In this document: in pieces, positions 10,189-42,025 of the stretch
How positions within the stretch are numbered: position 1 is the stretch's first letter
Layout of the letters: every line of letters begins with the position of its first letter
NCBI GenBank assembly: GCA_963663035.1
Contig: OY760074.1
Span: 1,376,001 to 1,440,000 of the forward strand
Direction: 5' to 3'
From: Acidobacteriota bacterium
GTDB taxonomy: Bacteria; Acidobacteriota; UBA6911; RPQK01; JADFOI01
DNA: 64,000 nt
Made by a program: the position numbers and the translations under genes
Notes under the pieces: generated by a model
The model's database searches: none
What the model saw: only the letters and a program-made list of their open reading frames with translations
What the model was told of the DNA's origin: nothing

Positions 10189-10227
10189 CACAGCTAACAT
10201 CCGAGAAAATCACATCGGACAAACGTC

Positions 10228-25045: not shown

Positions 25046-26011
25046 TCAATCCAAATAATAGCCGGAGCCGATCAGGATCGGCACCCCAAAGGTGACCACC
25101 CGCTTGACGAAGGACACCTTGCGCTGGGGCATCCCGTTGGAGGGGTTGACCGACGTGTAGTACAGAAAGGTTTCCCCGAATGCTTCCGCCACGGCCACGT
25201 CATCCCGGACGGCGATGGTGGTCAACTCCGAAGGGCTTATGCCCATCCCCCAGTTGTAGGGGTTGCCGGTAAAGAGCGTGTTGCCGTACATGTCCACGCC
25301 AAACAGGTAGATCGAGTGGCTCCTCCAGCGCGGATCGGTGGACAAAGAGACGAGGCCGAAGTATCCCGTCGTCTCCAGCTCCATGGCGGCGCAGCGGACA
25401 AATTCCTGCAGCTTTTGGTTGGACGGATGCTCGTGGATCTGGGTGGCGTTGACCTCTTCCCTCCTGCACGTGCCGGGGAGGTCGCGGCGATACACGCCCG
25501 CGCCGATCGTGGCAAGGGCCCCGTCCCAGTCGATGCTCTTGAGGTAAGAAGCCTTCGGCTCATCCCTGCCGGTCGCCGGGTTCGTGAAGGAGTAGTAGAT
25601 CCAGCCCTCGCCGACCTGGTTCACGATACGATGCTGTTCCCGAAACCAGTCATTGCCGAAGATGTCGATCAGCAGGCCCCACGGCTCCCCTTCCCTTGAG
25701 GGGTCAGGCGGGAAGACGAACACTCGAGACATGTCGGACATCGGGGTCGCTTCGGCGACGAAAACATAGATCTGGCCGCTTCTCCAGCGCGCCTCCTCGT
25801 GGAAGGCTCGGCGGGCCTCCTCAAACCCCATTTCCTGGACGAACTCGTAGGCGCATTGAACGAAGGCCTGGATATCCTCCTGTGTGCGCACGGCGCTAGC
25901 AGTGACGGACTTATCCGCGCAAGACAGGGGTTCATCGCCACCGAGAACCGGTGCGGCAATAGGCGCAGCTTCGAGGGCGGGACGAGGGGAGCTGTTCCAG
26001 AAGCCTAACAA
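25046..26011 (-). CDS. Tandem Cache-domain protein, probably N-terminally truncated
   Basis: Two repeats, each with YxF..., GW/F.YY...NP..G...PK.S.., IG.G.Y. Confidence 0.75.
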   Translation of the reverse strand: MLGFWNSSPRPALEAAPIAAPVLGGDEPLSCADKSVTASAVRTQEDIQAFVQCAYEFVQEMGFEEARRAFHEEARWRSGQIYVFVAEATPMSDMSRVFVFPPDPSREGEPWGLLIDIFGNDWFREQHRIVNQVGEGWIYYSFTNPATGRDEPKASYLKSIDWDGALATIGAGVYRRDLPGTCRREEVNATQIHEHPSNQKLQEFVRCAAMELETTGYFGLVSLSTDPRWRSHSIYLFGVDMYGNTLFTGNPYNWGMGISPSELTTIAVRDDVAVAEAFGETFLYYTSVNPSNGMPQRKVSFVKRVVTFGVPILIGSGYYLD

Positions 26012-26207
26012 ACCCTCCTTTACCTTTACGGAGCCGCGTCCATCGATATCCTTCAGACCATATTCCAGCGGCTGGTATGGCCCACAGGATCGTCCAATTT
26101 ACCGACGGTCATTTCTCCAAAGAGCTGTCGCCCTTGCCCTTGGTATAATCATTGGCGATGATCGAAGATTGCAGACTGATCGGAAATCGCCACCCTGGGA
26201 AACCTCA

Positions 26208-26639
26208 ATGACTTCACCGTTGCGAAGCGTGAATGTTGATCATGTGTCTCGGCTGATGGAAGCCGTCCGTATCGGGGGAGAATTGGACATGGAGAAATTC
26301 CTTCGGGTGGCATCCGATATCGGAGAATATGCGCCTGAAACGGATCTGCGCTACCAACCCAATGGTCTTCCGGGAGCGTCTGACGATACCGAGAGATTCG
26401 AGTGGGTTTCCCGGTGGCTAGGTTTGAAGGATCCAGAAGCCGAAGTCCTGTTCGGTCTCGGCAAACCACGGTACACGCCTTCCGGTATCACGCGTGAGCA
26501 TCTGTTGGCCGTGTTGGAGGCGATCCGCGAAGGTGAGCCGGTGGATCGGGATATCTGGGCCAGGCACGATCCGGATCGGGACCGGAAACTTTCCGGCCTG
26601 CCTCCAAAAACCACGAGCCCACAGGAGGTAGGACCATGA
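26208..26639 (+). CDS. Hypothetical protein (mobile-element-like)
   Basis: Coding-like composition; ATGA overlap with the next gene. Confidence 0.55.
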   Translation: MTSPLRSVNVDHVSRLMEAVRIGGELDMEKFLRVASDIGEYAPETDLRYQPNGLPGASDDTERFEWVSRWLGLKDPEAEVLFGLGKPRYTPSGITREHLLAVLEAIREGEPVDRDIWARHDPDRDRKLSGLPPKTTSPQEVGP

Positions 26640-26878
26640 ACATGAATATGTACGTCTACCGGGTGACTGAAAAGCCGGATTCTGAAAGCGTCGGCGAGCC
26701 GGGAGAGCCATTCGAGGCGTTCAACTTGAGCGAGGCGAAGCGCATCTCAACGCGACGGCAGAAGGTCAAGGGGAGCGTGCTCGTCCTGGAGGATCTGACC
26801 GGCAGGCCACGCGTTGTCTCAACCAAAGGTGCAAGCGGAAAATGGACGGATGAGGAAGAAGAGGAGACGTCCTACTAA
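26636..26878 (+). CDS. Small hypothetical phage/plasmid-like protein
   Basis: GGAGG/AGGA RBS, ATGA coupling, acidic tail. Confidence 0.6.
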   Translation: MNMNMYVYRVTEKPDSESVGEPGEPFEAFNLSEAKRISTRRQKVKGSVLVLEDLTGRPRVVSTKGASGKWTDEEEEETSY

Positions 26879-27021
26879 AGGGGTGTGCAGGCCACAAGGC
26901 ACCTGTTGCGACCTGCATCTCCGAGGCTCTGGACGCCACTTGGTGAGAGTCATCTGGTCGATGCTCACCCAAGAGCGAGATTATTGAGATGCGAGCCTAA
27001 AAAATGCTTGAAAATTCTCGC

Positions 27022-27142
27022 GGGATGTTCAAGTTAACTGGTTGCCGAGGGATCAATCCACCATATAGAGTATCCAGGCGTGGTTTTACTACCGATATTT
27101 CGTAGTTGTCTCAGCTTATGATGCGTTAACTTGGCAATGCCC
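27022..27142. repeat. IS6-like MITE/remnant, copy 2
   Basis: CAAGTTAAC ... GTTAACTTGGCAATGCC; ~100 bp similar to 38849-38950. Confidence 0.6.
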
Positions 27143-27477
27143 CGGCGAACCGCCACTTTTTGGGTGGGAAGGTTCTCAACCAGTAGCCCAGGTTGGCCAC
27201 CTGGCATGCCGCCTTCACTTCATTCAATCCGCACCCTCACACCAGCACTCCGTGGAGGTCCAGAATGGAAAACTCGAATTCCTTTCCCTTATCCCAGAGT
27301 CCCGTCTGTCTCACCACCCACTCAGTCGCTTCAGCTGGTTCATAGGTACTCCCGCACCAGGGCATCCAGGGATGGAGACAATCGATCGATTCCCGAATGG
27401 CCTCTACCAATTCCGGGGGTGTCCTCCTCCCGGTATCGCTGTAGATTGATCAGGTCGGTGTGCAGTTCTTCAATCAT
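27143..27477 (-). pseudogene. RimJ/RimL-type GNAT acetyltransferase pseudogene
   Basis: MIEELHTDLINLQRY.../ELVEAIRESIDCLHPWMPW...EFSILD..G.LV*GCGLN...ANLGYWLR; frameshift, stop and truncation at the MITE. Confidence 0.7.
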
Positions 27478-28867
27478 TCAAGCGGGTTCCGCAACCATCA
27501 AAATCACTGTTCTCCCGTCCCTGCCGTCTTCGGGTCATCGAGAAGACGGCACCGCCGGCAACGACGGTCATCAGGGCCAAGGTCGACTCCAGAGGCCGTC
27601 CCTGAAAGGCCCAGTACATCATCCAGACAGAAACAGACAGAAAAAGTACGGGGGTGAAAGGATACCCCCAGGCACGAAAGGGCCGCTCCAGGTGGGGGTC
27701 TCTGAGACGCAGAACAATAACACAAGAGACGGCCAAACTGGAGAACAAGACCAGCGTGAACCCGGTATACTGTTGAATCTGATCCACCCGGCCCGCCAGG
27801 ATGATCGCCGAGGTGATGATTCCCTGCAGGCAAAGGGCCGTAACCGGCGCGCCGTTGCTTCTGGTTCGAGCCAAAAATGAAAACTGGTGGAAATCAATAC
27901 CCAGAGCATAGTAAACCCTGGGCCCGGCCACCGTCATGGCCGAGACCGCGGCCAGAAGGGAGACAGAGAGAACGACGTTGACCAGTGTGACCCCCGCCGC
28001 TCCGAATAGCGCTCGAGAGGCCACCAGTCCGACCTCCACCTTGCCAGCCAACTCATCCACGTTGGCACCGTACAGATAGACGGCATTCAAACCCAGATAG
28101 AGGACCAGCACAATACCCGTCCCCATCAGAAGCGCCCGCGGAAGATTCCGTTGAGGATCTTTCATTTCTCCAGCCACATAGGCGGCTGCATTCCAGCCCG
28201 AATAACAGAACATGACGAAGATGAAGGATGTTCCGAGGGCAGTCAGGGTCTCCGTTCTACTCAGCTCATAGAACGAGTCGGAGACTCGGGTCAGATTGGA
28301 AAGGTTCCCATTCCCGACCGCTGCGGCTCCCAGCAGGATGATCAGAATGCCAGCAACCTTGAAAAGGGTTACGGCATCATTAAACCCGAGTCCAGATCGG
28401 ACTCCACCTATATGAACAGAGATCAGAAACCAGACAATCGCTATGGCGATCAGGTCGTTCAAAGAGAGACCAAGGCCCAACACCAACTCCTCGCCCAGGA
28501 CCGGGAAGAAATAGGCCAGGTAGCGGACCAGAGCCTTGGCGGCCGAAGCGATCGGCGCCGAAAACCCCGCAATTAATGACACAAAGGCGCTCATGAACCC
28601 CAGGGCCGGTCCGTAGGTTCTGCGCAAATAGACGTATTCACCTCCGGCCTGCGGCATCAGGGCACCCAGCTCCGCATAACAGAGCGCTCCGAAGAGAGCC
28701 AGTACTCCTCCGCAGATCCACAACACGAATATGTAGACGGGATGTCCCAGATCGGCAGCCTGGAAGCCGGTGGTGGTGAAGATTCCGGCGCCGATCATGT
28801 TGGCCACCACTAGCGCCGTGGCCGACCGGAGTCGAATCTGCCTGAAGAGGCTGTGAGTGTCTGACAT
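27470..28867 (-). CDS. APC-family amino acid permease
   Basis: NMIGAGIFTT, YAELG..MPQAGGEY.Y, YSGWNAA.Y.AGE..DP, ~12 TMs. Confidence 0.93.
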   Translation of the reverse strand: MSDTHSLFRQIRLRSATALVVANMIGAGIFTTTGFQAADLGHPVYIFVLWICGGVLALFGALCYAELGALMPQAGGEYVYLRRTYGPALGFMSAFVSLIAGFSAPIASAAKALVRYLAYFFPVLGEELVLGLGLSLNDLIAIAIVWFLISVHIGGVRSGLGFNDAVTLFKVAGILIILLGAAAVGNGNLSNLTRVSDSFYELSRTETLTALGTSFIFVMFCYSGWNAAAYVAGEMKDPQRNLPRALLMGTGIVLVLYLGLNAVYLYGANVDELAGKVEVGLVASRALFGAAGVTLVNVVLSVSLLAAVSAMTVAGPRVYYALGIDFHQFSFLARTRSNGAPVTALCLQGIITSAIILAGRVDQIQQYTGFTLVLFSSLAVSCVIVLRLRDPHLERPFRAWGYPFTPVLFLSVSVWMMYWAFQGRPLESTLALMTVVAGGAVFSMTRRRQGRENSDFDGCGTRLND

Positions 28868-28955
28868 GGACAGACCGTTCCCTTTGCTGCTCACGGGCCA
28901 AGCTCAAACGGGCTGAATGACTGCCTTCGGTCTGTTCCGCCTGGGGCTGCCCTGC

Positions 28956-29618
28956 CTAGCGTCGTCCGAAGACTAGGAAGAATTTGTCCTCGAAAAGATC
29001 GACCTCTTCGATCAGGGTGAGACCAGCGTCCTTCATCCAAGCCTCCACCTCGTCCTGCGAGATATGCATCTCCGGCTGGTCCTTGTGACCGGCATCGGGA
29101 TGATCCCTGATCATATCGATCACTACTATTCGGCCCTCCGGATTCAGGTAGGAGGCCGTTGCCTTCAGGTAATCCTGCCGGTTCTCGATGTGATGAAGGA
29201 CATCATGAAAAAAGGCGACGTCGAGATCTCTTGTCGGAAGCTTCGGATCTTCATACTCTCCCAGGACTGTACTAATGTTTCCAAGATTTTCCTTGGCCGC
29301 CCGCTCGGCGATGATATCGAGAAGGTCCTGATCCACTTCGACGGCAAAGAGAGTACCCGAGGATCCGATAGCCTTGGCGAATGGTCTCGAGAACACGCCC
29401 GTTCCCGCCCCGATATCCGCAACTGTGTCACCCGGCTTTAGACTTAACCCGGCCACCACCTCCTCGATCTTCAGGCCCTGGACCCGCTCTTCTCTTTCGA
29501 GCCTATCGGCCCACTCCTCGGCCGTGCGGCTTCCCAGTTGAAACGCCCACACCGCTGTCACGGAAGTCAGTACTATCCCAACCACCACCAGATTTCTCTT
29601 TAGCTTTGACATCGTCAT
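28956..29618 (-). CDS. Class I SAM-dependent methyltransferase with signal peptide
   Basis: VADIGAGTG.F, DVLHHI, L.PEGRIVVID. Confidence 0.9.
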   Translation of the reverse strand: MTMSKLKRNLVVVGIVLTSVTAVWAFQLGSRTAEEWADRLEREERVQGLKIEEVVAGLSLKPGDTVADIGAGTGVFSRPFAKAIGSSGTLFAVEVDQDLLDIIAERAAKENLGNISTVLGEYEDPKLPTRDLDVAFFHDVLHHIENRQDYLKATASYLNPEGRIVVIDMIRDHPDAGHKDQPEMHISQDEVEAWMKDAGLTLIEEVDLFEDKFFLVFGRR

Positions 29619-29845
29619 CCTCCCTGCTCAGCCAAGAACCAAACACTCACTACTCTCGATTCTGTTAATCCTATTGTGGCAGAGCCTCGTCCCTTTTTAA
29701 AGTCCAGATCTGATTCAAAGACGGATTGCTATCACTGGCGGAAGGATGATCGGCTGACCTGCTCTTGACCGGCTCCAATACCCCAAACTCCGGGTCGATT
29801 TGCCGGCCGCCATGGAACCTGCTACAGGAATATCTAGTCTGCCTG

Positions 29846-30949
29846 GACCTTGTTGCATGGATCATCCCGAAGGATGTCTAATCATGGTTTTTTTCAACAC
29901 TGGGGATAACTTAGATGCCACATAAGTTCAACGCATCCCGACGGCACAAGTTCGATAAGGCGCAGTATCGGGTGATCGACTGGGCGGAATATAACGAGAG
30001 CCTGCGCCAGCGGGGTGATCTGACGATCTGGGTCAGTGAGGAGGCGCAAAGTGTGTGGAGCGCGCCGCGCCGCACGTCACGGGGTGGCCAGTGGAGATAC
30101 TCGGATTTGGCGATCGAGACATGCCTGACGCTGCGCACGACGTATCGGCTTGCGTTGCGGCAAACGCAGGGACTTATGGGCTCCATCGGCACGCTCATGG
30201 GGCTGGATATACGGGTGCCGGATTACTCCACACTGTCGCGTCGCGCAAACGGCTTGAGCATCGCTCAGGCGATGAGGCAAGCCGGGTCTGTGGCTGTCCA
30301 TCTGGTGGTGGACAGTACCGGCCTCAAGATCTTCGGCGAGGGGGAATGGCTCGCCCAGAAGCATAAAATCAAGGGAATACGCAGCCGCTGGCGCAAACTC
30401 CACCTCGGACTGGACCTGGCCAGCGGTGCGATTGTTTGCGCCGATCTGACTCACGATGAGGTTGGAGACAGCACCGCCTTACCCGGGCTCCTGGATCAAC
30501 TCGATGCTCCTGTCACGGGCTTTCTGGCTGACGGCGCCTATGATGGAGCGTCTATACGGGATATGCTGAGGCCGCGGTATGGGGAGACCCTGGATGTGGT
30601 TATACCGCCGCCGAAGAACGCAGTGATCCGACCGCAATCGGCGCGGGATCCAACCGTTCGGGATCGCCATATTGCCCAGATCCGCAGCAACGGCCGCATG
30701 GCCTGGCAAGTGGCCACAGGGTACAACCAACGCAGCCGGATAGAAACGCAGATCGGTCGTTGGAAGAGCGCGATCGGCCCCAAGCTCAAATCTCGCAGCT
30801 TCTCCAGGCAAATCACGGAGATCCAGGTCGGCCAGAAAGTTCTGAACACAATGACCGCACTCGGGCGGCCTGTGTTCCAACGCATCGCCTGACGCTACCG
30901 CTTGGGAAAGGGCGAATTCCATCTCCGCCCCGATCCATGCAACAACGCT
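29846..30949 (+). mobile_element. IS5-family (IS903-like) element, copy 1
   Basis: 18-bp IRs GACCTTGTTGCATGGATC / GATCCATGCAACAACGCT; 1104 bp. Confidence 0.92.
29915..30892 (+). CDS. IS5 family transposase
   Basis: W.EYNESLRQRG, DSTGLK..GEGEW, ADGAYD, GY.QRS..ET. Confidence 0.95.
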   Translation: MPHKFNASRRHKFDKAQYRVIDWAEYNESLRQRGDLTIWVSEEAQSVWSAPRRTSRGGQWRYSDLAIETCLTLRTTYRLALRQTQGLMGSIGTLMGLDIRVPDYSTLSRRANGLSIAQAMRQAGSVAVHLVVDSTGLKIFGEGEWLAQKHKIKGIRSRWRKLHLGLDLASGAIVCADLTHDEVGDSTALPGLLDQLDAPVTGFLADGAYDGASIRDMLRPRYGETLDVVIPPPKNAVIRPQSARDPTVRDRHIAQIRSNGRMAWQVATGYNQRSRIETQIGRWKSAIGPKLKSRSFSRQITEIQVGQKVLNTMTALGRPVFQRIA

Positions 30950-31085
30950 GTAAAACTGAAAGCCCGGATAAGCGATCGTTGGCCGCCTAACACGTCAGGC
31001 ATGTAGTCCTTGGAGAGCCCGCTACCGAGAGTTTATTTGGAAGAAAATGGCCGGGGATTCAGCGAGCTGCTGTTCCAGGTTAGGT

Positions 31086-31119
31086 GATGGTACTTAAAGT
31101 CCGTGGACTTTAAGTCATC
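31086..31119 (+). promoter_or_regulatory. C-box double operator for an R-M controller protein
   Basis: TACT-TAA-AGTC-CGTG-GACT-TTA-AGTC; perfect palindrome ACTTAAAGTCC-GT-GGACTTTAAGT, 21 bp before the XRE gene. Confidence 0.8.
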
Positions 31120-31140
31120 AATGGTGATGATATTGGCTCG

Positions 31141-31359
31141 ATGGACAAACAGGCGGAACAGAGTGTCAAAGAGTTGTTTGGCGCCAGACTGCGGCACGTT
31201 CGCCAGGAAAACGGCTTGTCGCAGGAAGCGCTGGCCTTGACTTGTGGCCTGGACAGAACGTACATCGGCGGAGTCGAGCGGGGTGAAAGAAACATCAGTC
31301 TCGTCAACATTCACAAAATCGCGAGGGCTCTGGGCGTATCGGCAAAAGAGTTCTTCTAA
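31141..31359 (+). CDS. XRE-family controller (C) protein
   Basis: FG.RLR..R...GLSQE.LA...GLDRTYIGGVERGERNISLVNI.KIA.AL; C-box upstream. Confidence 0.88.
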   Translation: MDKQAEQSVKELFGARLRHVRQENGLSQEALALTCGLDRTYIGGVERGERNISLVNIHKIARALGVSAKEFF

Positions 31360-34083
31360 ATGGCTGACGTTCCCATGGAAGATTGGATCTCCGCCGCGAT
31401 TTCGGAAGAACAGAAGCGCCCTTTCGCTGGCACGAGGGATCGGTCGTCAATCTTGGCTGGCGCGGGTTCAGGAAAGACGAGAACGCTGACTCACCTGCTT
31501 GCCCACGATCTGTGCTCAGGAATTCCTGCATCGGGCATCGTGGCCTTCACATTCACGGAGAAAGCAGCTGAGGAGTTTCTTGCACGGATTCATGTCCTGC
31601 GGAACCAGAAGATGCCGACAGTTGACTTATCGGGTATCTTCATCGGAACGATACATTCGTGGTGCCTTCAGTACATCTACTCGCAGCCGGATTTCTATAA
31701 CATCATGCCTATTGACGAGTTGCATTGTGATGCGCTTGTAGGGCGCCTATACGACGTCTTCAAGCTGGAAGAGATCTACAAGAAACCGTTTCCCAAGGCC
31801 ATTGAGCCGTTTCTGGCGGATATCGAAGTCTTCTACAACGAGCATCTGCCGTTGGGAAAAATCCCTCCGGCTGTTGGGCCAGCACTGACCTCGTTCATAG
31901 GGGTTCTTTCGGCGAATCGGCTTTTGACGTTCGGAGGGATGATCCGATCTGCAACCGAACACCTGGAAGTGAACGGGCCACTCGCAGAGCTGCAATCGCT
32001 GTATGTGGACGAGTATCAGGACGTCAATCCGGCGCAAACGGCCCTGATTAAAGCGATGGTTCCGCCCAACGGGAAACTGCGGGTTGTCGGGGACGACCTT
32101 CAGAGCATCTACAACTGGCGAGGCAGCGACGTGACCAGGATTCTTGAATTCTCTAATGAGTTCGAGCCGGCCGAAGTGTTCCGTCTGTCCACGAATTACC
32201 GATCGAGGCCTGAAGTGGTCACGGTTGCCAACGGCGTTGCGGAAGACATCGTTTTGAAGGACCCCCAGAAAGTGATGCAGCCCGGCCGAGAGAAGTGTGG
32301 CCGAAAGGTTATTCACTGGCTTTCGACGAACAACGAGACGGATCAGGCGGAGACGATTGTTGAGATAGTTAAGCGGTTCCACAGCGCCGGTGTGCCGCAT
32401 TCAAAGATCGCGATCTTGCTTCGTTCGGTTACCGGGGCAGGGAGGCCGATATACGAAGCCCTTAAGGCGGAGAGCATTCCCGTGGAATGTCCGATGCTCA
32501 GTCGCGGCGGGGCTTTCATCAATACGTTTCTGCTCCCGGTTCTGAAGTGGCTGCGCACGGAACAGCTGGAGTCGAGAAACAGGCAGGAAGAGGAAGAGCA
32601 AGAGGCAGACGCGCATTCGCTGTGGTTGTCGGTGGCTCCTTGGTTGTCGGTGGAAAACGCCGAGGACGTTTTTTGGAGTGGTCTGAATCACTGGTACGAC
32701 CTCGTGCGGGGAGGCAAGAGCAGTGCATACAACGTAAGAAGCTGCCTTTACGATTTCCTGGACGAGTGTGGGGTCCGAGTAGCGCCCTCAGACACAGACC
32801 TGATGGTCGGAATCGGCATAGCATCCCAGATCATTCGGAGGGTGGAAGAGATTCACCGAAGACGAATCAAAGGCCAAAACAGGCGTTCGGCTGCCGGGGT
32901 TATCAGTGAGGTGTACTACGCGCTTATCCGCAATCAGGGAAACTTCGGTGAGAGCTTGCCGGTCAATCTAAAGGCCGAAGGGGTCGTTCTGACGACAGTG
33001 CATCAAGCCAAAGGCCTGGAGTGGCCGGTTGTATGCCTGCCGATGCTGAATAGAAGGCGCTTTCCGTTAGTAAACCGGCCAGCCAAAAGCAGCTTTCCAC
33101 CACTCATCTCCGACAGGTATGGGACCAAGTTGGACGATGAACGGCGCCTGTTCTACGTAGCGGTCACGAGAGCTCGTGAACGGCTTTTCATGCTGGATAC
33201 GGCGGCGGCGGACCCACGGGTAAGGTCGGCCTTCCTGACAGACCTAAAGCAGAGGGGAGTGCTCCCTCAAGAGGGTTTATCAGAACCGTCGGATTTAACT
33301 TGGTCGATTGCGGCGAAAGACTTGCGAAGCGACAGCCAGCCGCCAATCAGGGTGAGCCTTTCTGACCTCTTGCTGTACCTCGAATGCCCATATCAATTTG
33401 GCCTTCGCAGAGTCACCGGCCTCCAACCAGCAGTGGGCGATGAATTGGGTTTCGGGAAAGGACTCCATGAGCTGTTACAGCGGCGGGCGGAAAGCGATCA
33501 CGCATGGAACCAAGAGGAAGTGACGACCCAAGTAGAGAGCCACGTCCATCTGCCGCTGAGTTCGGATAAAGAAGAACAGCGCGCGAAACGTGCGATCGCT
33601 CAGAGGATTACCGAGCTTGACAAGCTCGGTGCATTCACGAGCGAACTCCGGCAGGAGCTGCCAGTGGAAGTATTCCTGAGTAGTGGCGTTGTGACTGGCG
33701 TCATCGACTTCGTCTATACGCAGCCGGATGGCTCCCTGGCCGTTCGCGATTGGAAAGCCAACGTCCATGACGAGTTCATCGCGCGATACGCCCGCCAACT
33801 GCAGGTCTATGTACACGCCTTGCGAATGCAGGGGCAGACTGTCAGCAGGGCAGAACTCGTTGACGTTGGCGCATCGATGAAAGCAAAGAAGCTCGTCACG
33901 ACCGCTGTTGATATTAGCGAAGCCACGATTTCCCGGTTGATGGAGGACTGCCAGCAAGCGTTGCAAGCAATACGGGAAGGCACGTTTAAGCCAAAACCTA
34001 GTGTCAGCGTATGTGGGAGTTGCGACGTGCGGCGGATATGCGCTGTGCGCGAGGGAGAAGAACGTGCGGAAACTGAAAACTAG
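31360..34083 (+). CDS. UvrD/REP-type SF1 helicase fused to a C-terminal PD-(D/E)XK nuclease with four-Cys (Fe-S staple-like) motif
   Basis: AGAGSGKT, FTEKAA, TIHS, DEYQD, GDDLQSIYNWRG, NYRS, TVHQAKGLEW, ERRLFYVAVTRA; CPY...GVID...DWK...QLQVY...CGSC....C. Confidence 0.93.
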   Translation: MADVPMEDWISAAISEEQKRPFAGTRDRSSILAGAGSGKTRTLTHLLAHDLCSGIPASGIVAFTFTEKAAEEFLARIHVLRNQKMPTVDLSGIFIGTIHSWCLQYIYSQPDFYNIMPIDELHCDALVGRLYDVFKLEEIYKKPFPKAIEPFLADIEVFYNEHLPLGKIPPAVGPALTSFIGVLSANRLLTFGGMIRSATEHLEVNGPLAELQSLYVDEYQDVNPAQTALIKAMVPPNGKLRVVGDDLQSIYNWRGSDVTRILEFSNEFEPAEVFRLSTNYRSRPEVVTVANGVAEDIVLKDPQKVMQPGREKCGRKVIHWLSTNNETDQAETIVEIVKRFHSAGVPHSKIAILLRSVTGAGRPIYEALKAESIPVECPMLSRGGAFINTFLLPVLKWLRTEQLESRNRQEEEEQEADAHSLWLSVAPWLSVENAEDVFWSGLNHWYDLVRGGKSSAYNVRSCLYDFLDECGVRVAPSDTDLMVGIGIASQIIRRVEEIHRRRIKGQNRRSAAGVISEVYYALIRNQGNFGESLPVNLKAEGVVLTTVHQAKGLEWPVVCLPMLNRRRFPLVNRPAKSSFPPLISDRYGTKLDDERRLFYVAVTRARERLFMLDTAAADPRVRSAFLTDLKQRGVLPQEGLSEPSDLTWSIAAKDLRSDSQPPIRVSLSDLLLYLECPYQFGLRRVTGLQPAVGDELGFGKGLHELLQRRAESDHAWNQEEVTTQVESHVHLPLSSDKEEQRAKRAIAQRITELDKLGAFTSELRQELPVEVFLSSGVVTGVIDFVYTQPDGSLAVRDWKANVHDEFIARYARQLQVYVHALRMQGQTVSRAELVDVGASMKAKKLVTTAVDISEATISRLMEDCQQALQAIREGTFKPKPSVSVCGSCDVRRICAVREGEERAETEN

Positions 34084-35359
34084 AGAGGATATCTGGGTTT
34101 TGACCCCGAGCGCTGATGACCTGAAGGCGGGAGCGTACTATGCCGCCGTCAGCCTTCCTTGGACATTCAACCGCATGATGCTCAACACGACTTCGGCCGG
34201 CCAACGGCATCGAGCCCTGAACATTGCGAAGGGCATCGTTGGGCAAGAAATACTCAAGCGCGAGATGGAACGGGTTGGAATAAAGGCTCAGATGCAGCGA
34301 AAAAGCTATCGCGATGAAGACCTGTTCGATTTTAACGTCGAAATCGGTGGCACTCTAACAAAGCTCGATTTGAAGAGCGTCAATTACTTTACGGACTACG
34401 CACCTATCGGACGCGAACCGTTTTCGGCAGATTTGCTCATGAAGTACACGGGATATGCTGACGCTGACTGGAGAACCTTCTTCCCGATGCTCGTGCCACA
34501 TACGCAAATCGAGCAGAGCAAGGAAGGTTACTGCTTCGCAATCGCGAGCAGTATCGACCTGAGAAAAGACATAGCGACCAAACGGACGGGCTACGCGCTG
34601 ACAGCGTTCCCTTATGGGGAACATCTAGGGTTTCTGAGTTCCAAGAAGCTCTGTCTGCTGCGGGAAGAAGCCAACAAGGGCTTCTACGTCGAATTCCTGT
34701 ACAAAGCGGACTCTCTTTTCGGCTCCGAAGTGACCCTGTCGGCGATAGGGGAGTGGGACGGTGAGCCTAGTATGATTGAGGTGAAGCTGCGTTCCGGCGT
34801 GGCAAAGCAAGTTGGGCCGTTCTCGTGCATCTCATCTTTCCAGGTGGACAAGGACAGCTATGACCAGCTTTCCGGATCGGTCGAAATATCGGTGAAGAAG
34901 AACGGCTTCAAGACGCCGGTTCTTAACACGCAAAAACGGAACACCAATAGGGTTCCCAAGGGATCTTTCAAGCTGGCGAGGCCCGACTTCTGCAATTTGT
35001 TCTTGCCGACGGACTACACGTTGTACGTGATCGGGTGGACGTACAAGGACGAGTTTCTTCAGGCATGCCGGCAGTACACGGGCTGGGTGTGGCCTAAGGA
35101 CAGCATCGACAAGTTCAAGAACCAAGCCTGGACCCAAATCACTGAGAAGGACCGGAAAAATCTAGGAAAAAAAGGGTTCGGGAGTTCTATACCAGACCCG
35201 CCGCGTATACTAAGAGCAGGGTGGCTCAAGACGACAGGCCATGGCGGAGGCGCCTGCTGCTACGTGTTTCCGAACATCGGAGCAAACGGAGGAGTGAAGG
35301 AGACAAATCTTTATATCCTGCCTCGGGATTTGTACACTATGGGCACCCTGGAACAGTAG
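34064..35359 (+). CDS. Unknown protein, putative PD-(D/E)XK restriction-endonuclease-like
   Basis: GTG start with GAGGGAG RBS overlapping the helicase end; KGIVGQE...DLFD...LDLKS pattern. Confidence 0.7.
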   Translation: MRKLKTREDIWVLTPSADDLKAGAYYAAVSLPWTFNRMMLNTTSAGQRHRALNIAKGIVGQEILKREMERVGIKAQMQRKSYRDEDLFDFNVEIGGTLTKLDLKSVNYFTDYAPIGREPFSADLLMKYTGYADADWRTFFPMLVPHTQIEQSKEGYCFAIASSIDLRKDIATKRTGYALTAFPYGEHLGFLSSKKLCLLREEANKGFYVEFLYKADSLFGSEVTLSAIGEWDGEPSMIEVKLRSGVAKQVGPFSCISSFQVDKDSYDQLSGSVEISVKKNGFKTPVLNTQKRNTNRVPKGSFKLARPDFCNLFLPTDYTLYVIGWTYKDEFLQACRQYTGWVWPKDSIDKFKNQAWTQITEKDRKNLGKKGFGSSIPDPPRILRAGWLKTTGHGGGACCYVFPNIGANGGVKETNLYILPRDLYTMGTLEQ

Positions 35360-35372
35360 GGAACGGTTTTAG

Positions 35373-36905
35373 ATGAGCGGAAATATGGCAATTGGTAAAC
35401 AAGACAGGTTGACCTTCGACCCTTCCTCTGCCGCAAAGAGGCAGAAGGGCAATCGCGGCGGGCCACCGAATCGAATGAACGATTTGGTATACCGCGACTG
35501 GATGAAGTTCCAGAAGAGTTTCTTCCGGTTCGCATCAGATCAGGCGCTCATCGAAGAATGCGTGTACTTCTTCACGAAGGCGATCTGGGACGACGGAACC
35601 GCATCGCGGACCTTGATCGTGGGAGCAGAGGAGTTCTCCCAAGCGGCAATCCCCTCCCCTCGAGTCGTCACGCACGTCTGCGGGCACAAGTCGTTCGAGA
35701 CGGTTAACAACACCCTTTGCGGCCAGACCAGGAAGACCAGAGAGCACGACTTCGTGCTTGTGGACCTGCGCGCTCTCATCACAGAACAAGCCGAGCTGGA
35801 TGATTTCATCAACCGATACGCCGAGGGATTTTTCGAGGGTATCCGGGCGGCACTTAGAGATGATCGCTACTGCTGCGTGATGGTGGGACTTCCACAGACC
35901 GGTGGTGGTGGATTTCCGTTTCCGTGGGCAGTGGCCCTCGCGGCGCGCGCTCATCTGAGGCTGCGGGATGAGAAAATAGGCCTGATCGAGGACGAAGGGC
36001 GTGCATTCTACTGCCTGTTCATGCAAGCGAACGAGGATGGCCGGCCGCGAGAGAGTATGACCAAGAAAAGCTTCCATCTCTCGGATGCGGAGTTCTGCCG
36101 GGATGTACCTGCATGGATCATTCCAAGGCCTCCCCCTAGGAGGAAGAATGAAATTCTTCATCCTGCTAAGTTCCCGGAGACGTTAATCGAACAGCTTATT
36201 AAGATTCACTCTTCGGAGATGGATAACGTCTTCGACCCGATGGTGGGAACGGGTAGCACAGTGATTGCTGCGTTGCGGACGAAGAGAAACGGGTTCGGGA
36301 TCGATCTCTCAAAGGAATTCATCCAGACCGCGCAGGATCGAATAGCGCAAGAACAGGCACCATCGTTATTCCCCGGTGTTGAGCTAGAGGGGCGGGTTTT
36401 TGTTGGTGATGCCACTAGGCTCGATGAGATACACGAACTTGATGGGATTGAATTCCAGTACGCGGTGACGAGCCCGCCGTACTGGTCAATGCTGAAGAAT
36501 CCCGGCAGCGAGAATCAGAAGGCCAGGCGCAGCCGCAATCTTCCCCTGGTGTATTCCGATGATGTACAGGACTTGGGAAACATTGCCGACTACGACGAAT
36601 TTCTGAATGTCCTAGAGAGCATATACAACGATGTTGCCGTGCGACTAGCGGACGATGGAATGCTCACAGTTGTGGTGAAGAACGTAAAGCGGCATCATAC
36701 CCTCCATCCGCTGGCCTGGAATCTGACCAGCAGACTCTGCGGTCCGAAAGGTTCCTTCAATTACGTAGGTACAACGCTGTGGTGCCAAGACGATGTTGGA
36801 ATCAAACCTTTTGCAGTCGGAATCCTCTGGGTGAGCAACATCCTGCATACGTACTGCCTGCATTTTCAAAAACGGAAAGTCCCCGAAGAACCGCGCAAGA
36901 ACTGA
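35373..36905 (+). CDS. DNA amino-methyltransferase (N4-C/N6-A) with degenerate N-terminal MTase-like half
   Basis: HPAKFPE, FDPMVGTGS (motif I), TSPPYW (motif IV). Confidence 0.9.
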   Translation: MSGNMAIGKQDRLTFDPSSAAKRQKGNRGGPPNRMNDLVYRDWMKFQKSFFRFASDQALIEECVYFFTKAIWDDGTASRTLIVGAEEFSQAAIPSPRVVTHVCGHKSFETVNNTLCGQTRKTREHDFVLVDLRALITEQAELDDFINRYAEGFFEGIRAALRDDRYCCVMVGLPQTGGGGFPFPWAVALAARAHLRLRDEKIGLIEDEGRAFYCLFMQANEDGRPRESMTKKSFHLSDAEFCRDVPAWIIPRPPPRRKNEILHPAKFPETLIEQLIKIHSSEMDNVFDPMVGTGSTVIAALRTKRNGFGIDLSKEFIQTAQDRIAQEQAPSLFPGVELEGRVFVGDATRLDEIHELDGIEFQYAVTSPPYWSMLKNPGSENQKARRSRNLPLVYSDDVQDLGNIADYDEFLNVLESIYNDVAVRLADDGMLTVVVKNVKRHHTLHPLAWNLTSRLCGPKGSFNYVGTTLWCQDDVGIKPFAVGILWVSNILHTYCLHFQKRKVPEEPRKN

Positions 36906-37036
36906 GCAGGTCAGAACATGGGAGTTCGCTTCCTCGCAGTCGTTCCAAAGCGTCTGTAAGGGCTCGGAGACAAACGAAGGGTTGGAGTCTGATAAGGCGC
37001 TGCAAGAGAGCTGTGGCTGACAGTTGGTGACTGGCG

Positions 37037-38773
37037 TCACGTCAGCAGCGTCGTGATCTCGGATTTGAGACTTTCCCTCCTCGCCGAGTGAAAGGATTTG
37101 AACTCTAAAAGGTCGTCGGGCACATTGCCGAGCAGGTGCAGATTCAGGTACTCGGTCCGTTTCTCATCGGACTCGAAAGTGGAGAGCCATTCGGTCGGCA
37201 GTTTCGAGCGCTTCTCCTGGTTTTCGACACCCGCCAGGAGCTGGAGGTTCGGCAGGCTGTTCATCATCTCACGTAGGTCCGCTACCTCCTCTTCCGAGAA
37301 ACCTTTCGACTTCAACAGCGCCGCCGCGAATTGAGATTTGGGGAAGAAGTGGTCCACGTGAAAGTGATGCCTAAGATCGAGGTGTCTGAATATCAGCGAC
37401 AGTAGACAGAACGTACGTTTGTCCCCGTAGCGCATGTCGGTCAATTCGTCGATTTCCTCGCTGTTGAACACGAGGGACTTGCCGCGCGTGCTCATTGCTT
37501 TGCGCAATTCTTCAACCGGAAATCCGTTACCTTGATTGTCCTTTATTACTTGCCGGAGTAACGTTAGGAATGAGTCTAGCCCGCTTCCCCAGATACCTGA
37601 CTTCAGTAGACCAGAAACCAGCCACTTCCGAATTATCTCTCTGTCGGCGTTGGACTGCGCCTGGGTTAAATATCCGTCTTCCGCCCCAGTTCCATAAAAG
37701 TAGTAGGCTATTGGCAAGAGGGCGCTGTCTGTCCTGAGGGTTTCCGACTTGAAGCCGAAGTTCGAAGCCAGATGGACTGTAAGCGTCAGCGACCGTTTGA
37801 TTTTTTCCCACTTGCTCTCCAGTATCTCCATATTCTTTCGGTTGAAATTCTCCACTTTGAAACCAACGCTGCCAATGTCGCTGAGCATCAGACCGGCCTT
37901 GAGTACCCAATCCTTGGAAAATTCGAACCCGTTGCCGATCTTGTTGATATCGTCGACTAGCTGGTGAATCACCTCGCGGGCGTCGTACTTCGACCACTGG
38001 GCCACGGCGACGGATAGCAGCAGATCGGAGTAGGACAGAACGGTTCCTCCGCTGTTTGTCCGAATGAATATCTGAAGGACCTCCTCCAGTTCTTGGCTAG
38101 CCTCTTCGTAGAAGCACACCAGTAATCTCTCTCGAATGACAGTGTACAATTGGTGAAGCACCTTGTGGGCCTCCGCAACGGGGCGGTTGGGTAGTCGGTT
38201 CTCAAGCCACTCAGTCATGGCTGGTCCGCTGTCGGCCAGTTTCAAGATGTCCTTGACCTCAAACCAGCACGACGCACTGTTATCGACTTCCTCTCGAGTA
38301 CGAAAATCAAACCGATATTGAACGCCGACGTCGTCATCGTCATCGGGGGTCCAAAGCAGGTCGATGTAGAGGTGCTTTTGTGGGTATGCGTCGGGGTTGG
38401 TGCGCCGCTTCCAAGGGAGTTTCTTCGCCATCGAGCCGCGAGGACCGATGTTGAACGCGGTTAGGCGCTGCTGACCGTCGAGGACGGCGATCACATCCCG
38501 ATTCGGCATCTCGCCCAAGCGGTGGCAATGTGGATCATCTCTTTCGTGATACTCGCGGACAAAGTCGTAGAACTGGTAGCGGGTGTTGTGCTCCTGGCTA
38601 ACCTTCCAGTAAAGGAAGGTGCCGAAGGGGTAGCCTCGCATGAGGCTGTCAAACAGAGTGCAGATTTGCGCTGGCTCCCATACAAACTCGCGCTGGATGG
38701 CCGGCAGCACGAGTTGATGGCATTCGATTTGGTGGAGTGTCTGCTCGATCGTTACAGCCGTCTGGTACATCAC
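37037..38773 (-). CDS. GmrSD-like DUF262 + DUF1524/HNH protein (type IV restriction-like)
   Basis: LPAIQREFVW, LFDSLMRGYPFG, LDGQQRLT, F.R.NSGG..L, HVDHFFPKS, NLQLL...N. Confidence 0.88.
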   Translation of the reverse strand: MMYQTAVTIEQTLHQIECHQLVLPAIQREFVWEPAQICTLFDSLMRGYPFGTFLYWKVSQEHNTRYQFYDFVREYHERDDPHCHRLGEMPNRDVIAVLDGQQRLTAFNIGPRGSMAKKLPWKRRTNPDAYPQKHLYIDLLWTPDDDDDVGVQYRFDFRTREEVDNSASCWFEVKDILKLADSGPAMTEWLENRLPNRPVAEAHKVLHQLYTVIRERLLVCFYEEASQELEEVLQIFIRTNSGGTVLSYSDLLLSVAVAQWSKYDAREVIHQLVDDINKIGNGFEFSKDWVLKAGLMLSDIGSVGFKVENFNRKNMEILESKWEKIKRSLTLTVHLASNFGFKSETLRTDSALLPIAYYFYGTGAEDGYLTQAQSNADREIIRKWLVSGLLKSGIWGSGLDSFLTLLRQVIKDNQGNGFPVEELRKAMSTRGKSLVFNSEEIDELTDMRYGDKRTFCLLSLIFRHLDLRHHFHVDHFFPKSQFAAALLKSKGFSEEEVADLREMMNSLPNLQLLAGVENQEKRSKLPTEWLSTFESDEKRTEYLNLHLLGNVPDDLLEFKSFHSARRESLKSEITTLLT

Positions 38774-38848
38774 AAATCTTTCTACGGGCCGAGTCTCGGA
38801 AAGGTACTTTGTCTGGGTGAGTTCGTCAAGCCGTGTCGAGATCGGGTC

Positions 38849-38950
38849 GGTTGCCGAGAGACCAAGCCATCATATCGAGTATTCAGGCGTGGTCTTACTA
38901 CCGATATCTTTGGGCTGTATCAGCTCGTGATGCGTTAACTTGACAACGCC
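38849..38950. repeat. IS6-like MITE/remnant, copy 3
   Basis: Diverged direct repeat of 27040-27141 ending GTTAACTTGACAACGCC. Confidence 0.6.
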
Positions 38951-38961
38951 TTCCCGAAGGG

Positions 38962-39327
38962 TCATGTGACGATGTCTTCGTAGGTCTTTTTTTGTTCTGT
39001 AGTTCCCTCTTTCTCGATCAAAGCCAGTACCGCACGTTCAAAGGTCGTATGGTCATACACGTCAAGGTGCGCGCCCATTTCTTGGAAAAGCTCGCGCATT
39101 GCAGGCCTGACCTTTAAGCCGAGTTGCATTGTATACGGCGATTTCTTACGGCGGCGGAGTGTTTTCCGGACGTTTTCCCTGCTCGGAAATCCAGACTGTT
39201 CCGCAACTCTTTGGAGGGTTTCAGGGTCTACGACATTTTTCCCCTTCCGGCTCTTCCCTGCTAATTCTTCAATATCCACGGTTTCACTATCACTAGTAAA
39301 GTCTAATGCGGCCCGTTGCTTGCCCAT
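38962..39327 (-). CDS. Plasmid stability/partition determinant (ParA partner)
   Basis: Directly downstream of a parA fragment; VAEQSGFPSRE...RRR...QL.LKV. Confidence 0.65.
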   Translation of the reverse strand: MGKQRAALDFTSDSETVDIEELAGKSRKGKNVVDPETLQRVAEQSGFPSRENVRKTLRRRKKSPYTMQLGLKVRPAMRELFQEMGAHLDVYDHTTFERAVLALIEKEGTTEQKKTYEDIVT

Positions 39328-39329
39328 GG

Positions 39330-39642
39330 CTAGCGCTCCTTATCTTCAGCGTGTTGTGATGCTTTGATTTTCCGCAAAACTTCGTCGGTATAGGCTTCTG
39401 CATTCGCTATCGCGTTATCGACGCCAGAGACTTGGGACGGGTTCAGATCGTGCAACACGCCACCAAATGAGCGCATAGCCCGGAAGGCTTCACGGTCAAT
39501 CAATGAAATCTTAAAGAGATCAACTCCCGCCCCTTCAAACTGCTCGACAATATGGCGCAGGGTCCGCGGCTGTATTGCTGGACTCGTCCGCGTAAAGAGC
39601 ACAGAGAAAGGAATAACGCGCTTTAGAAGCTTCGATTGGTTC
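39330..39642 (-). pseudogene. C-terminal fragment of plasmid-type ParA, truncated by IS5
   Basis: LFTRTSPAI.PR...L.DREAFR....GG.L..L....VSGV..A..NA. Confidence 0.7.
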
Positions 39643-40746
39643 AGCGTTGTTGCATGGATCGGGGCGGAGATGGAATTCGCCCTTTCCCAAGCGGTAGCGT
39701 CAGGCGCTGCGTTGGAACACAGGCCGCCCGAGTGCGGTCATTGTGTTCAGAACTTTCTGGCCGACCTGGATCTCCGTGATTTGCCTGGAGAAGCTGCGAG
39801 ATTTGAGCTTGGGGCCGATCGCGCTCTTCCAACGACCGATCTGCGTTTCTATCCGGCTGCGTTGGTTGTACCCTGTGGCCACTTGCCAGGCCATGCGGCC
39901 GTTGCTGCGGATCTGGGCAATATGGCGATCCCGAACGGTTGGATTCCGCGCCGATTGCGGTCGGATCACTGCGTTTTTCGGCGGCGGTATAACCACATCC
40001 AGGGTCTCCCCATACCTCTGCCTCAGCATATCCCGTATAGACGCTCCATCATAGGCGCCGTCAGCCAGAAAGCCCGTGACAGGAGCATCGAGTTGATCCA
40101 GGAGCCCGGGTAAGGCGGTGCTGTCTCCAACCTCATCGTGAGTCAGATCGGCGCAAACAATCGCACCGCTGGCCAGGTCCAGTCCGAGGTGGAGTTTGCG
40201 CCAGCGGCGGCGTATTCCCTTGATTTTATGCTTCTGGGCGAGCCATTCCCCCTCGCCGAAGATCTTGAGGCCGGTACTGTCCACCACCAGATGGACAGCC
40301 ACAGACCCGGCTTGCCTCATCGCCTGAGCGATGTTCAAGCCGTTTGCGCGACGCGACAGTGTGGAGTAATCCGGCACCCGTATATCCAGCCCCATGAGCG
40401 TGCCGATGGAGCCCATAAGTCCCTGCGTTTGCCGCAACGCAAGCCGATACGTCGTGCGCAGCGTCAGGCAGGTCTCGATCGCCAAATCCGAGTGTCTCCA
40501 CTGGCCACCCCGTGACGTGCGCCGCGCCGCGCTCCACACACTTTGCGCCTCCTCACTGACCCAGATCGTCAGATCGCCCCGCTGGCGCAGGCTCTCGTTA
40601 TATTCCGCCCAGTCGATCACCCGATACTGCGCCTTATCGAACTTGTGCCGTCGGGATGCGTTGAACTTATGTGGCATCTAAGTTATCCCCAGTGTTGAAA
40701 AACACCATGATTAGACATCCTTCGGGATGATCCATGCAACAAGGTC
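39643..40746 (-). mobile_element. IS5-family element, copy 2 (inverted, near-identical to copy 1; transposase 39700-40677)
   Basis: Same 1104-bp length and IRs; transposase differs from copy 1 at a few residues. Confidence 0.92.
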
Positions 40747-40888
40747 TGTAATATCGAGGATGCTTACCGCGACCACTTTCTATTCTTCTGAAGCTTCAAG
40801 TTCCGTACTGCGACGGGAGATGAACTGGCGGATTTCATCATTCATTTTCGTGCCCGCCACCGCAACGTGGAGTTGCCCGCCGGCCTTA

Positions 40889-40920
40889 GCATGACTGCAT
40901 GTGTGCATGCAATCATGCTC
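40889..40920. repeat. GCATG-N3 array, 8-bp period (centromere-like), downstream of the par operon
   Basis: gcatgact gcatgtgt gcatgcaa tcatgctc. Confidence 0.55.
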
Positions 40921-40922
40921 CA

Positions 40923-41156
40923 TCAGGAGTGGTGTTCCTTGTAGTACTCCCAGACTTTTAGAAATAAGTGGCTGGAATGGAGATTCCGGGCTGCGGCGTA
41001 GGCCTTAAACTCGCACTTGGCTGCGGGAGGTATTCGCACCTGAAAAGGCACATTCTCCCCTGTCACGGGGCGCAGAAGATTGTCAGGCGTCGCGGCAGGT
41101 ATGGGAGGAGCTCCTTTGGGATTTGGCTTTTGGAGTGCGGCGTTGATTTTGGTCAT
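40923..41156 (-). CDS. ParG-like ribbon-helix-helix partition protein
   Basis: Coupled to parA; disordered N-terminus then VPFQVRIP...EFKAYAA. Confidence 0.65.
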   Translation of the reverse strand: MTKINAALQKPNPKGAPPIPAATPDNLLRPVTGENVPFQVRIPPAAKCEFKAYAAARNLHSSHLFLKVWEYYKEHHS

Positions 41157-41812
41157 TAGGAGGCCTTTCTGTTAGTGATCTTGGTTATGGCGTCGATGAT
41201 GCTCTGTGCGGTGGTGTCGGCACGGCGGTTGAGGGTCTGGTAGTTGGTTTCGGTGGCGGTGCGGCCTGCATCGCTTGCACGCCGGTAGGCGATGCGCTCC
41301 GGTACCTCACCCGCTATCATTTGGTATCCTGCCGCTTTGATGTATTCCTTTGCGTGCTGTATCTCGATCTTGCTGTCGCCAACACGCCAAAGGACAAAGG
41401 CGAGCCGTTCCGGATCTACGCCGTGCTGGTGACTCAGTTCGTGGGCAAGGCCCACTTGCGGGTGAAGATCGTCAACGGCAAGGCCCGTGGGGAGTATCAC
41501 GAAATCGGATGCGCGGGCCATGTCGCGGGTAGCCCTACTGGCATGGGGGGCACCGTCAAAAATAAACAGGTCGAACTTATCCGCAGCGGTCAAAGCGGTG
41601 CTGACACTCGTGAAGGTTTCGGTGTGAATTTCCGGCATGACTTGGTTTGCAGCTCGGCGCTTGAACCAGTGGTAGCTGGTGGCCTGCTGCACATCCATAT
41701 CAGCGATGTTGACGAGCCATCCGTTGTCAGCGAACTCGCGGGCGATCAGGCGGGCGATGCTACTTTTCCCAACACCGCCTTTTTGTGAGACGACGGCTAC
41801 TTTGATTGCCAT
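41156..41812 (-). CDS. parA: ParA family ATPase (short type Ib-like)
   Basis: SQKGGVGKS, ADMDVQQ, FDGAP, ILPTG...DL. Confidence 0.88.
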   Translation of the reverse strand: MAIKVAVVSQKGGVGKSSIARLIAREFADNGWLVNIADMDVQQATSYHWFKRRAANQVMPEIHTETFTSVSTALTAADKFDLFIFDGAPHASRATRDMARASDFVILPTGLAVDDLHPQVGLAHELSHQHGVDPERLAFVLWRVGDSKIEIQHAKEYIKAAGYQMIAGEVPERIAYRRASDAGRTATETNYQTLNRRADTTAQSIIDAITKITNRKAS

Positions 41813-41863
41813 GGATGAAAGGATGAGGTTTGGGCAGAGCCAGTTCGGGCTTTGGGTAGCCTA

Positions 41864-41903
41864 GCATGTTCGCATGCACGCATAGATGCATGATAGCATG
41901 CAC
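41864..41903. repeat. GCATG-N3 array, 8-bp period (centromere/operator-like), upstream of parA
   Basis: gcatgttc gcatgcac gcatagat gcatgata gcatgcac. Confidence 0.6.
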
Positions 41904-42025
41904 GGAGAAAGGGGTCAACGATTGGGATTCGGTGGGTGAGGTGTGTGTCTTTTGAGTAGGATGCTACATGGTTGTAGAGGCAGGGCTGACTAAGCTTATG
42001 AAGATCATCGGCACCTCCTCGATAA

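Follow-up and report, generated by a model that had tools for sequence, protein, structure and literature searches.

A conserved three-gene module resembling restriction-modification, with a UvrD-type helicase-nuclease, a predicted PD-(D/E)XK endonuclease and a DNA methyltransferase, in an Acidobacteriota genome

In a 64,000-nucleotide stretch of an Acidobacteriota genome (contig OY760074.1 of assembly GCA_963663035.1, positions 1,376,001 to 1,440,000 of the forward strand; hereafter the window, counted from its first letter), four tightly packed genes lie behind an inverted-repeat operator and together resemble a restriction-modification (R-M) operon. All four are on the plus strand and encode a controller (C) protein, a helicase-nuclease (HelNuc), a protein of a family without a name (Unk) and a DNA methyltransferase (MTase) (Table 1). 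The C gene runs into HelNuc with a gap of 0 bp, the HelNuc and Unk genes overlap by 20 bp, and 13 bp separate Unk from MTase, an arrangement that an earlier note on this DNA had described correctly, down to the controller-box (C-box) in front. The start of Unk is a GTG at position 34064, and a database copy of the protein (431 amino acids, 100% identity) begins at the same position.

Table 1. Positions of the module genes, their neighbours and related features. Coordinates refer to the window unless a record handle (L number) precedes them. aa, amino acids; HTH, helix-turn-helix; IS, insertion sequence; ORF, open reading frame.
Feature	Coordinates	Strand	Remarks and basis
Inverted-repeat operator (C-box-like)	31089..31119	+	half-sites 31091-31101 and 31106-31116
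C (controller) protein, 72 aa, HTH_3	31141..31359	+	Pfam, PADLOC
HelNuc, 907 aa	31360..34083	+	helicase at about residues 1-620, nuclease at about 664-895; Pfam, motifs
Unk, 431 aa, predicted PD-(D/E)XK endonuclease, candidate restriction subunit	34064..35359	+	motif, AlphaFold (AF2) model
DNA N4/N6 methyltransferase (MTase), 510 aa	35373..36905	+	Pfam, PDB sequence matches
Short Unk paralogue	L002:8311-9222		between Unk and MTase
Short Unk paralogue	L004:8310-9233		between Unk and MTase
Short Unk paralogue	L026:1551-2480		between Unk and MTase
Short Unk paralogue	L028:6302-7231		between Unk and MTase
GmrSD-type Type IV restriction gene (PADLOC HEC-05)	37037..38773	-	neighbour, not part of the module
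IS5-family IS, left copy	29846..30963	+	transposase 29915-30892
IS5-family IS, right inverted copy	39629..40746	-	transposase 39700-40677
Putative small ORF, 121 aa	38962-39327	-	between GmrSD and right IS
Putative small ORF, 90 aa	39330-39602	-	between GmrSD and right IS
102-nt direct repeat, first copy	27040-27141
102-nt direct repeat, second copy	38849-38950

HelNuc, Unk and MTase form a conserved module. The related Unk-encoding loci compared number 42, 9 from contigs of a one-genome-per-species collection and 33 from metagenomes. By tblastn (E <= 1e-5), HelNuc is encoded in 38 of them, MTase in 34, and all three genes in 32. Three of the four missing HelNuc genes and seven of the eight missing MTase genes fall at contig ends: L030, L031 and L039 end 105-851 nt upstream of Unk, the space being filled in two of them by a second Unk paralogue, and seven MTase-less contigs stop inside Unk or at most 176 nt after it. 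L016 has 1238 nt upstream of Unk without HelNuc, and L030 has 600 nt downstream of Unk without MTase. In L032, L033 and L036, the MTase gene is turned to the opposite strand, with HelNuc and Unk still together, and the flanks of the related loci are otherwise unrelated. The nine named genome loci carry the labels Bryobacterales, Planococcus, Salirhabdus, Phycisphaerales, Chloroflexi, Flavisolibacter, Eisenbacteria, Nanopelagicaceae and Porisulfidus. A distant version on a Haloferax lucentense plasmid consists of an MTase (294 aa), a helicase-nuclease (898 aa) and an Unk homologue (462 aa), in that order.

In the 24 loci that are complete, the identities of HelNuc, Unk and MTase to their counterparts in the window co-vary (r = 0.92, 0.97 and 0.87, the value for HelNuc and Unk being 0.92), which fits transfer as one unit, though relatedness of the loci inflates r. 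No Unk is found in 40 relatives of the source genome (6 from its genus, a further 8 from its family and another 26 from its order). This patchy, rare distribution is consistent with horizontal spread of an accessory gene set. Of the four-gene synteny that the earlier note had put up for testing, three genes are kept together across many phyla, but not the C gene, present in 3 of the 42 loci.

HelNuc is a superfamily 1 (SF1) helicase of the UvrD/PcrA type fused to a C-terminal PD-(D/E)XK nuclease of the four-cysteine, Cas4/AddB-like kind. Both halves are recognised by Pfam (UvrD-helicase, E = 4.3e-38; UvrD_C, 4.8e-28; PDDEXK_1, 2.6e-26), and the closest solved relatives among PDB sequences are PcrA and UvrD (E about 8e-37). 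The helicase motifs (Walker A, DEYQD, GDxxQ and the later ones), the nuclease residues D783, D797-W-K799 and QxxxY, and the cysteines C676, C885, C888 and C894 are invariant in all ten aligned HelNuc proteins. HelNuc is therefore taken to combine an intact SF1 motor with an intact nuclease of the iron-sulphur (Fe-S) type, as had been said of its motifs before; the Fe-S four-cysteine signature resembles that of AddB.

Like HelNuc, the AddAB, AdnAB and RecBCD enzymes join a UvrD-like SF1 motor to a RecB/Cas4-type nuclease, and DNA-end processing in their manner is, by analogy, its likely mode of action. Unlike AddAB and RecBCD, HelNuc is a single polypeptide whose gene neighbours code for a methylase and for a nuclease that resembles restriction enzymes, and Pfam finds no AddB, RecC or RecD gene in the operon. 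The NCBIfam models addA (88 bits, cut-off 708) and recB (87 bits, cut-off 696) score far below threshold, as do pcrA, uvrD and cas4 (TIGR00372 cas4, 1.1e-8). The top PADLOC match of HelNuc is GajB (1.4e-50) of Gabija, a system that shares a UvrD-family helicase in a defence setting; GajB, however, carries no fused nuclease, Gabija has no methylase, and no GajA (OLD/Toprim) match occurs among the seven proteins scanned with PADLOC. The absence of GajA and the sub-cut-off NCBIfam scores rule out membership in Gabija or AddAB, a separation already drawn in the earlier note. That note had likewise set the locus apart from Type III R-M with its superfamily 2 (SF2) motor. In Type III systems a Res subunit carries the SF2 (ResIII) helicase domain and a Mod methylase provides the specificity; the ResIII domain is found by Pfam in none of the four module proteins.

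Unk has no match in Pfam, PADLOC or NCBIfam. A Pfam search with all 42 aligned members at E <= 1 reveals no shared family; Couple_hipA, the most frequent match (5 of 42, best E 0.017), was taken as noise. PADLOC, as anticipated, assigns no more than three of the module proteins: the controller, HelNuc as a generic UvrD helicase, and the methyltransferase as a Type II or orphan enzyme. The residues D89, D102 and K104 (motif LDLKS) are invariant in the 42 Unk sequences, at least 90% of which also retain E62. In the AF2 model (pLDDT 86.6, pTM 0.87), E62 is placed on a long helix (residues 44-70), D89 starts the strand 89-94, and D102-x-K104 falls within the strand 97-109, with an inserted beta-sandwich at about residues 170-290. 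As modelled, the E...D...DxK constellation follows the canonical helix-strand-strand-strand layout of PD-(D/E)XK enzymes.

An exhaustive structure search with VIA ranks restriction enzymes and Holliday-junction resolvases highest, at Z about 5: it returns DpnI (Z 5.3), Hjc (5.2), I-Ssp6803I (4.9), D212 (4.7) and Hjc (4.6), followed in ranks 6 and 7 by MspI and NhoI (both 4.4), with PvuII, SwaI and NaeI lower; the match of the Unk fold to DpnI, MspI, NhoI and PvuII is weak (Z 3.5-5.3). All seven top rows are PD-(D/E)XK nucleases, and since the Z values lie under the noise level, the argument rests on this common superfamily together with the motif. Comparison of the Unk profile with PDB sequences gives chance-level matches only (E >= 0.32). 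The motif, the model layout and the weak restriction-type structural matches agree with the earlier description of Unk as like a restriction enzyme, and Unk looks like a PD-(D/E)XK nuclease of the restriction type, predicted from its model, in a family without a name.

The Unk family is sizeable: 227 homologues are found at E <= 0.001 in a set of 5.8 billion proteins, and the best 120 of these 227 show 41-100% identity over at least 91% of the length of Unk. The nearest clusters in the ESM Atlas are unnamed hypothetical proteins, and no relatives occur in phage records. Extra Unk-family genes are present in 9 of the 42 loci, as full-length paralogues in L003, L031, L034 (three copies), L036 and L039, and as short paralogues of 303-309 aa in L002, L004, L026 and L028 (hhalign probability 90%, E 1.4e-6). 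These extra genes suggest that Unk may act as an oligomer, sometimes as a hetero-oligomer; heterodimeric Type II restriction enzymes offer a comparison for such pairs.

The MTase matches N6_N4_Mtase of Pfam (4.5e-22). In its catalytic domain (residues about 245-510), motif I DPMVGTGS (288-295) precedes motif IV SPPY (367-370), both motifs being invariant in 44 MTase sequences. This order is a permutation of that in the beta-class enzyme 2zie, with which the domain aligns in two swapped pieces. The next-best solved sequence matches include N4-cytosine methyltransferases (1.8e-9). Such likeness, together with SPPY, points to N4-methylcytosine (m4C), which is probably the product as judged from the sequence. 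The first 220 residues match the remainder in conservation, and residues about 50-220 form a second, degenerate Rossmann/MTase-like domain in the AF2 model (pLDDT 82). The top Foldseek matches of this model are RsmC, phosphoethanolamine methyltransferase 2 (PMT2), RlmKL and RlmG, which we take to be tandem-methyltransferase-fold proteins. The Haloferax MTase (L123:2374-3258, 294 aa) consists of the catalytic domain only, with a short N-terminal NDL...W.KF.KS motif kept.

The C protein is recognised by Pfam (HTH_3, 1.4e-15) and PADLOC (Control_protein, 3.2e-26). The C-box consists of two inverted 11-bp half-sites around a CGTG spacer, 24 nt before the C start, and presumably resembles published C-boxes. 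Its pattern count is within chance (at least 3 matches in 8 of 100 shuffles); what makes it credible is that the block 31089-31119 is kept in all four C-gene-bearing loci while the DNA further upstream is not. Such a C protein with a conserved C-box is, at the sequence level, typical of Type II R-M control. PvuII, BamHI and AhdI are Type II R-M systems under C-protein control, and the HTH controller, the upstream inverted-repeat C-box and the separate MTase are shared with systems of that kind, which also have a PD-(D/E)XK nuclease, as predicted here for Unk. Unlike them, a helicase-nuclease of 907 aa sits here between C and the candidate restriction gene, and the controller is rarely retained: its homologues occur in L001, L011 and L012 only, and L003 has a different, divergent HTH gene instead. 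The C gene stands outside the conserved core, and the C-protein/C-box switch is restricted to the source genome and its closest relatives. A promoter/terminator scan of 30900-39700, which may not suit this organism, gives no plus-strand sigma-70 promoter, with counts below the shuffled expectation, and an Rfam scan of 26000-42000 gives no match.

The surroundings of more distant HelNuc relatives bear on which protein restricts. A HelNuc profile scan kept 80 of 590 confirmed loci, and the neighbourhoods of 29 of these, in which the match reaches the nuclease domain and which are not duplicates of L007 or L009, were examined by comparing the nearest 75 of 120 neighbour ORFs with Pfam. An N6_N4 MTase of 612-1029 aa lies near 13 of the 29, five of them with a ResIII helicase; a C5 MTase lies near 3, one with Vsr; neither type is present near the other 13 at E <= 1e-10. 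Unk is near none of 78 non-duplicate loci with distant HelNuc relatives. The HelNuc proteins that it accompanies all belong to the subfamily with at least 37% identity, and full-length HelNuc relatives at 25-38% identity occur in Type III-like and Dcm/Vsr contexts. Because these distant relatives adjoin Type III-like and Dcm/Vsr modules that are complete without HelNuc, HelNuc looks, as far as sequence goes, like an accessory. Unk appears the better candidate for the restriction (R) position, in which the earlier note had placed the helicase-nuclease.

Both contexts reproduce what the text of Hudaiberdiev et al. (2017, PMC5704561) describes for UvrD-Cas4 fusions, which share with HelNuc the SF1 UvrD helicase, the four-cysteine Cas4-like PD-(D/E)XK nuclease and a place beside methylase genes. 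There the fusions are reported to be monophyletic and to have either Type III Mod/Res or Dcm/Vsr genes as neighbours; they are predicted, computationally, to be probably ancillary parts of several defence systems; solo uvrD-cas4 genes and a possible overlap with RecB-type functions are also mentioned (PMC5704561). Where the contexts given in that text are Type III Mod/Res and Dcm/Vsr, the partners here are the unnamed 431-aa PD-(D/E)XK protein and a tandem-fold, permuted MTase, and the present module, unlike the Type III context, has no Res helicase. The class, an R-M system with a UvrD-Cas4 accessory, was thus predicted in 2017 (PMC5704561); the nameless family of putative restriction nucleases and the unusual MTase are new here. 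Literature naming or testing the HelNuc-Unk-MTase module was not found in searches; the idea put forward in the earlier note is nevertheless not entirely new (PMC5704561). In sum, the observation of the earlier note is confirmed and its interpretation is partly supported.

As a separate observation, L086, an Aminicenantes record, holds a distant HelNuc relative beside RadC and a C5 methylase (genes at 423-2117 (-), 8730-9446 and 9597-10655); a GmrSD-like match upstream is weak (E 2e-15). RadC adjoins the helicase also in L074 and L082.

The analysis shows gene content, intact motifs, three-gene conservation and patchy distribution, and predicts the fold class of Unk; all activities, their sequence in time and the role in defence are inferences from these. 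The reading placed first, at about even chances, is a three-component Type II-like R-M module in which the methyltransferase (M) marks, the restriction protein (R) nicks or cuts and the helicase-nuclease (H) degrades. The tandem-fold N4/N6 MTase would mark host sites, and Unk would nick or cut sites left unmethylated. HelNuc, translated together with Unk, would load at the nick or break made by Unk, unwind the DNA 3' to 5' and degrade it processively, as RecB or AddA would. Restriction would thereby become irreversible and independent of the RecBCD or AddAB of the host.

Several points weigh against this three-component reading. The structural match of Unk is weak, with Z at most 5.3, under the noise level that the tool states for a best hit, and Foldseek finds no match of the Unk model to the PDB at E <= 0.001. 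The 42 loci are not independent, L006 and L025, for example, giving identical values. All three proteins are unusually conserved across phyla, with a mean column identity of 60% for Unk; Type II restriction enzymes do not typically show conservation of this degree, and it may mean that Unk is not the specificity determinant. The co-directional order of C, H, R and M leaves it unclear how M would be expressed first. The overlap of the HelNuc stop with the Unk start and the tight co-variation of the two proteins, moreover, fit an obligate complex equally well.

Such a complex, in which Unk, or the HelNuc nuclease, cuts only after ATP-dependent translocation driven by the SF1 motor, is the next reading, a serious contender though clearly the less probable one. 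It would resemble, with the same reserve, CglI/NgoAVII or Type III/ISP enzymes with an SF1 motor in place of the SF2 motor. It is favoured by the gene overlap and by the confinement of Unk to that one HelNuc subfamily (at least 37% identity). HelNuc and Unk overlap or abut in most loci besides the 20-bp overlap here, they stay paired in the three loci with an inverted MTase gene, and their divergence is correlated. CglI/NgoAVII offers a precedent for an enzyme made of R and a helicase-like H, and comes, as does the present module, as three genes for a separate helicase-like protein, a site-specific nuclease and a methylase. There, H is described as an SF2 DEAD-Z1 ATPase without nuclease. The R of CglI/NgoAVII combines a PLD-type nuclease and a B3-like domain. 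In the present module, by contrast, the place of H is taken by an SF1 UvrD helicase that brings a nuclease of its own, and the candidate R is PD-(D/E)XK-like, Unk having no PLD or B3 match in Pfam.

Two features of HelNuc sit badly with an obligate complex. Its distant relatives accompany Type III-like systems that possess a motor of their own, suggesting a modular add-on, and its complete nuclease would be superfluous in a mere motor. A predicted complex of Unk and residues 380-907 of HelNuc reaches a best score of 0.31 against a mark of 0.32, which is neutral on binding. To our knowledge, the characterised ATP-dependent restriction enzymes all use SF2 or McrB-type motors. If Unk and HelNuc did form an obligate complex, a tentative proposition, it would be the first restriction enzyme driven by an SF1 (UvrD-type) motor, a distinct R-M type in Bacteria and Archaea, and would amount to a self-contained restrict-and-destroy machine working without host RecBCD. 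In it, Unk, as a new restriction-nuclease family, would recognise unmethylated sites, after which the SF1 helicase with its Fe-S nuclease would draw in the DNA and shred it.

It is improbable that the module is primarily a methyl-directed nick-and-excise machinery, serving repair, recombination control or selfish post-segregational killing rather than phage defence. The analogy would be to MutH, UvrD and Dam, since a methylase, a PD-(D/E)XK endonuclease and a UvrD-type helicase parallel methyl-directed mismatch repair. The module is also mobile and IS-flanked, and the possible RecB-type overlap mentioned in the 2017 text (PMC5704561) would suit such a role. The conserved unit, however, includes no MutS or MutL partner, its rare and patchy occurrence (9 loci in the species-genome collection, 0 of 40 relatives) is unlike that of a repair pathway, and control by a C protein and the neighbouring Type IV restriction gene speak for another setting. 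That Unk and MTase are an ordinary Type II R-M pair merely lying beside an unrelated helicase-nuclease gene is very improbable, even though HelNuc matches the PADLOC models of GajB and of further UvrD helicases that stand alone, and solo uvrD-cas4 genes exist (PMC5704561), because HelNuc adjoins Unk in 38 of the 42 loci across many phyla and on the archaeal plasmid, with a start/stop overlap and co-varying divergence.

If the three-component reading is true, an SF1 helicase with a Cas4/AddB-like nuclease would represent a new way to finish off restricted DNA, and a function would be provided for the widespread UvrD-Cas4 fusions. It would further define a new family of restriction nucleases, which lacks a Pfam model and comprises at least 227 protein clusters, as well as an unusual methyltransferase of tandem fold and permuted motif order. 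Some phages inhibit RecBCD, and if HelNuc frees restriction from RecBCD, the module may bear on the control of such phages. With three genes, or four with the controller, in less than 6 kb, it is easily cloned.

Downstream of MTase lies a GmrSD-type Type IV restriction gene, which matches PADLOC HEC-05 over its full length (1.8e-215), GmrSD_N (DUF262) at 2.1e-26 and GmrSD_C (DUF1524) at 0.0014, the last under cut-off. The earlier note was right about this neighbour; its adjacency is nevertheless incidental. As no homologue is found in any of the 42 related loci, the gene is regarded as an independent neighbour and was rejected as a part of the system.

The R-M module, the GmrSD/HEC-05 gene and two small ORFs are bracketed by a pair of IS5-family elements, inverted repeats of 1118 nt with 98% identity (Pfam DDE_Tnp_1_5 and DDE_Tnp_1), and the genome contains four full copies of the element. 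Inspection by eye of the IS ends gives no convincing target-site duplication under either a single-IS or a composite reading, so that "composite transposon" describes the layout and not a shown event. The two small ORFs have no match in Pfam, PADLOC or NCBIfam. The 102-nt direct repeat, whose two copies in the window are 82% identical, occurs five times in the genome, whole or in part; three of these occurrences cluster near 2.81-2.82 Mb beside IS fragments, and the repeat may be the end of another mobile element. The surroundings at 19-44 kb are rich in mobile elements, with genes at 19547-20941 (-), 21473-22195 (+), 42331-43371 (-), 41156-41812 (-) and 23399-24751 (-); they hold a DDE_Tnp_1_4 transposase, an IS240-type transposase, an rve integrase and a ParA-like ATPase, as well as a Y-family (ImpB/DinB) polymerase gene.

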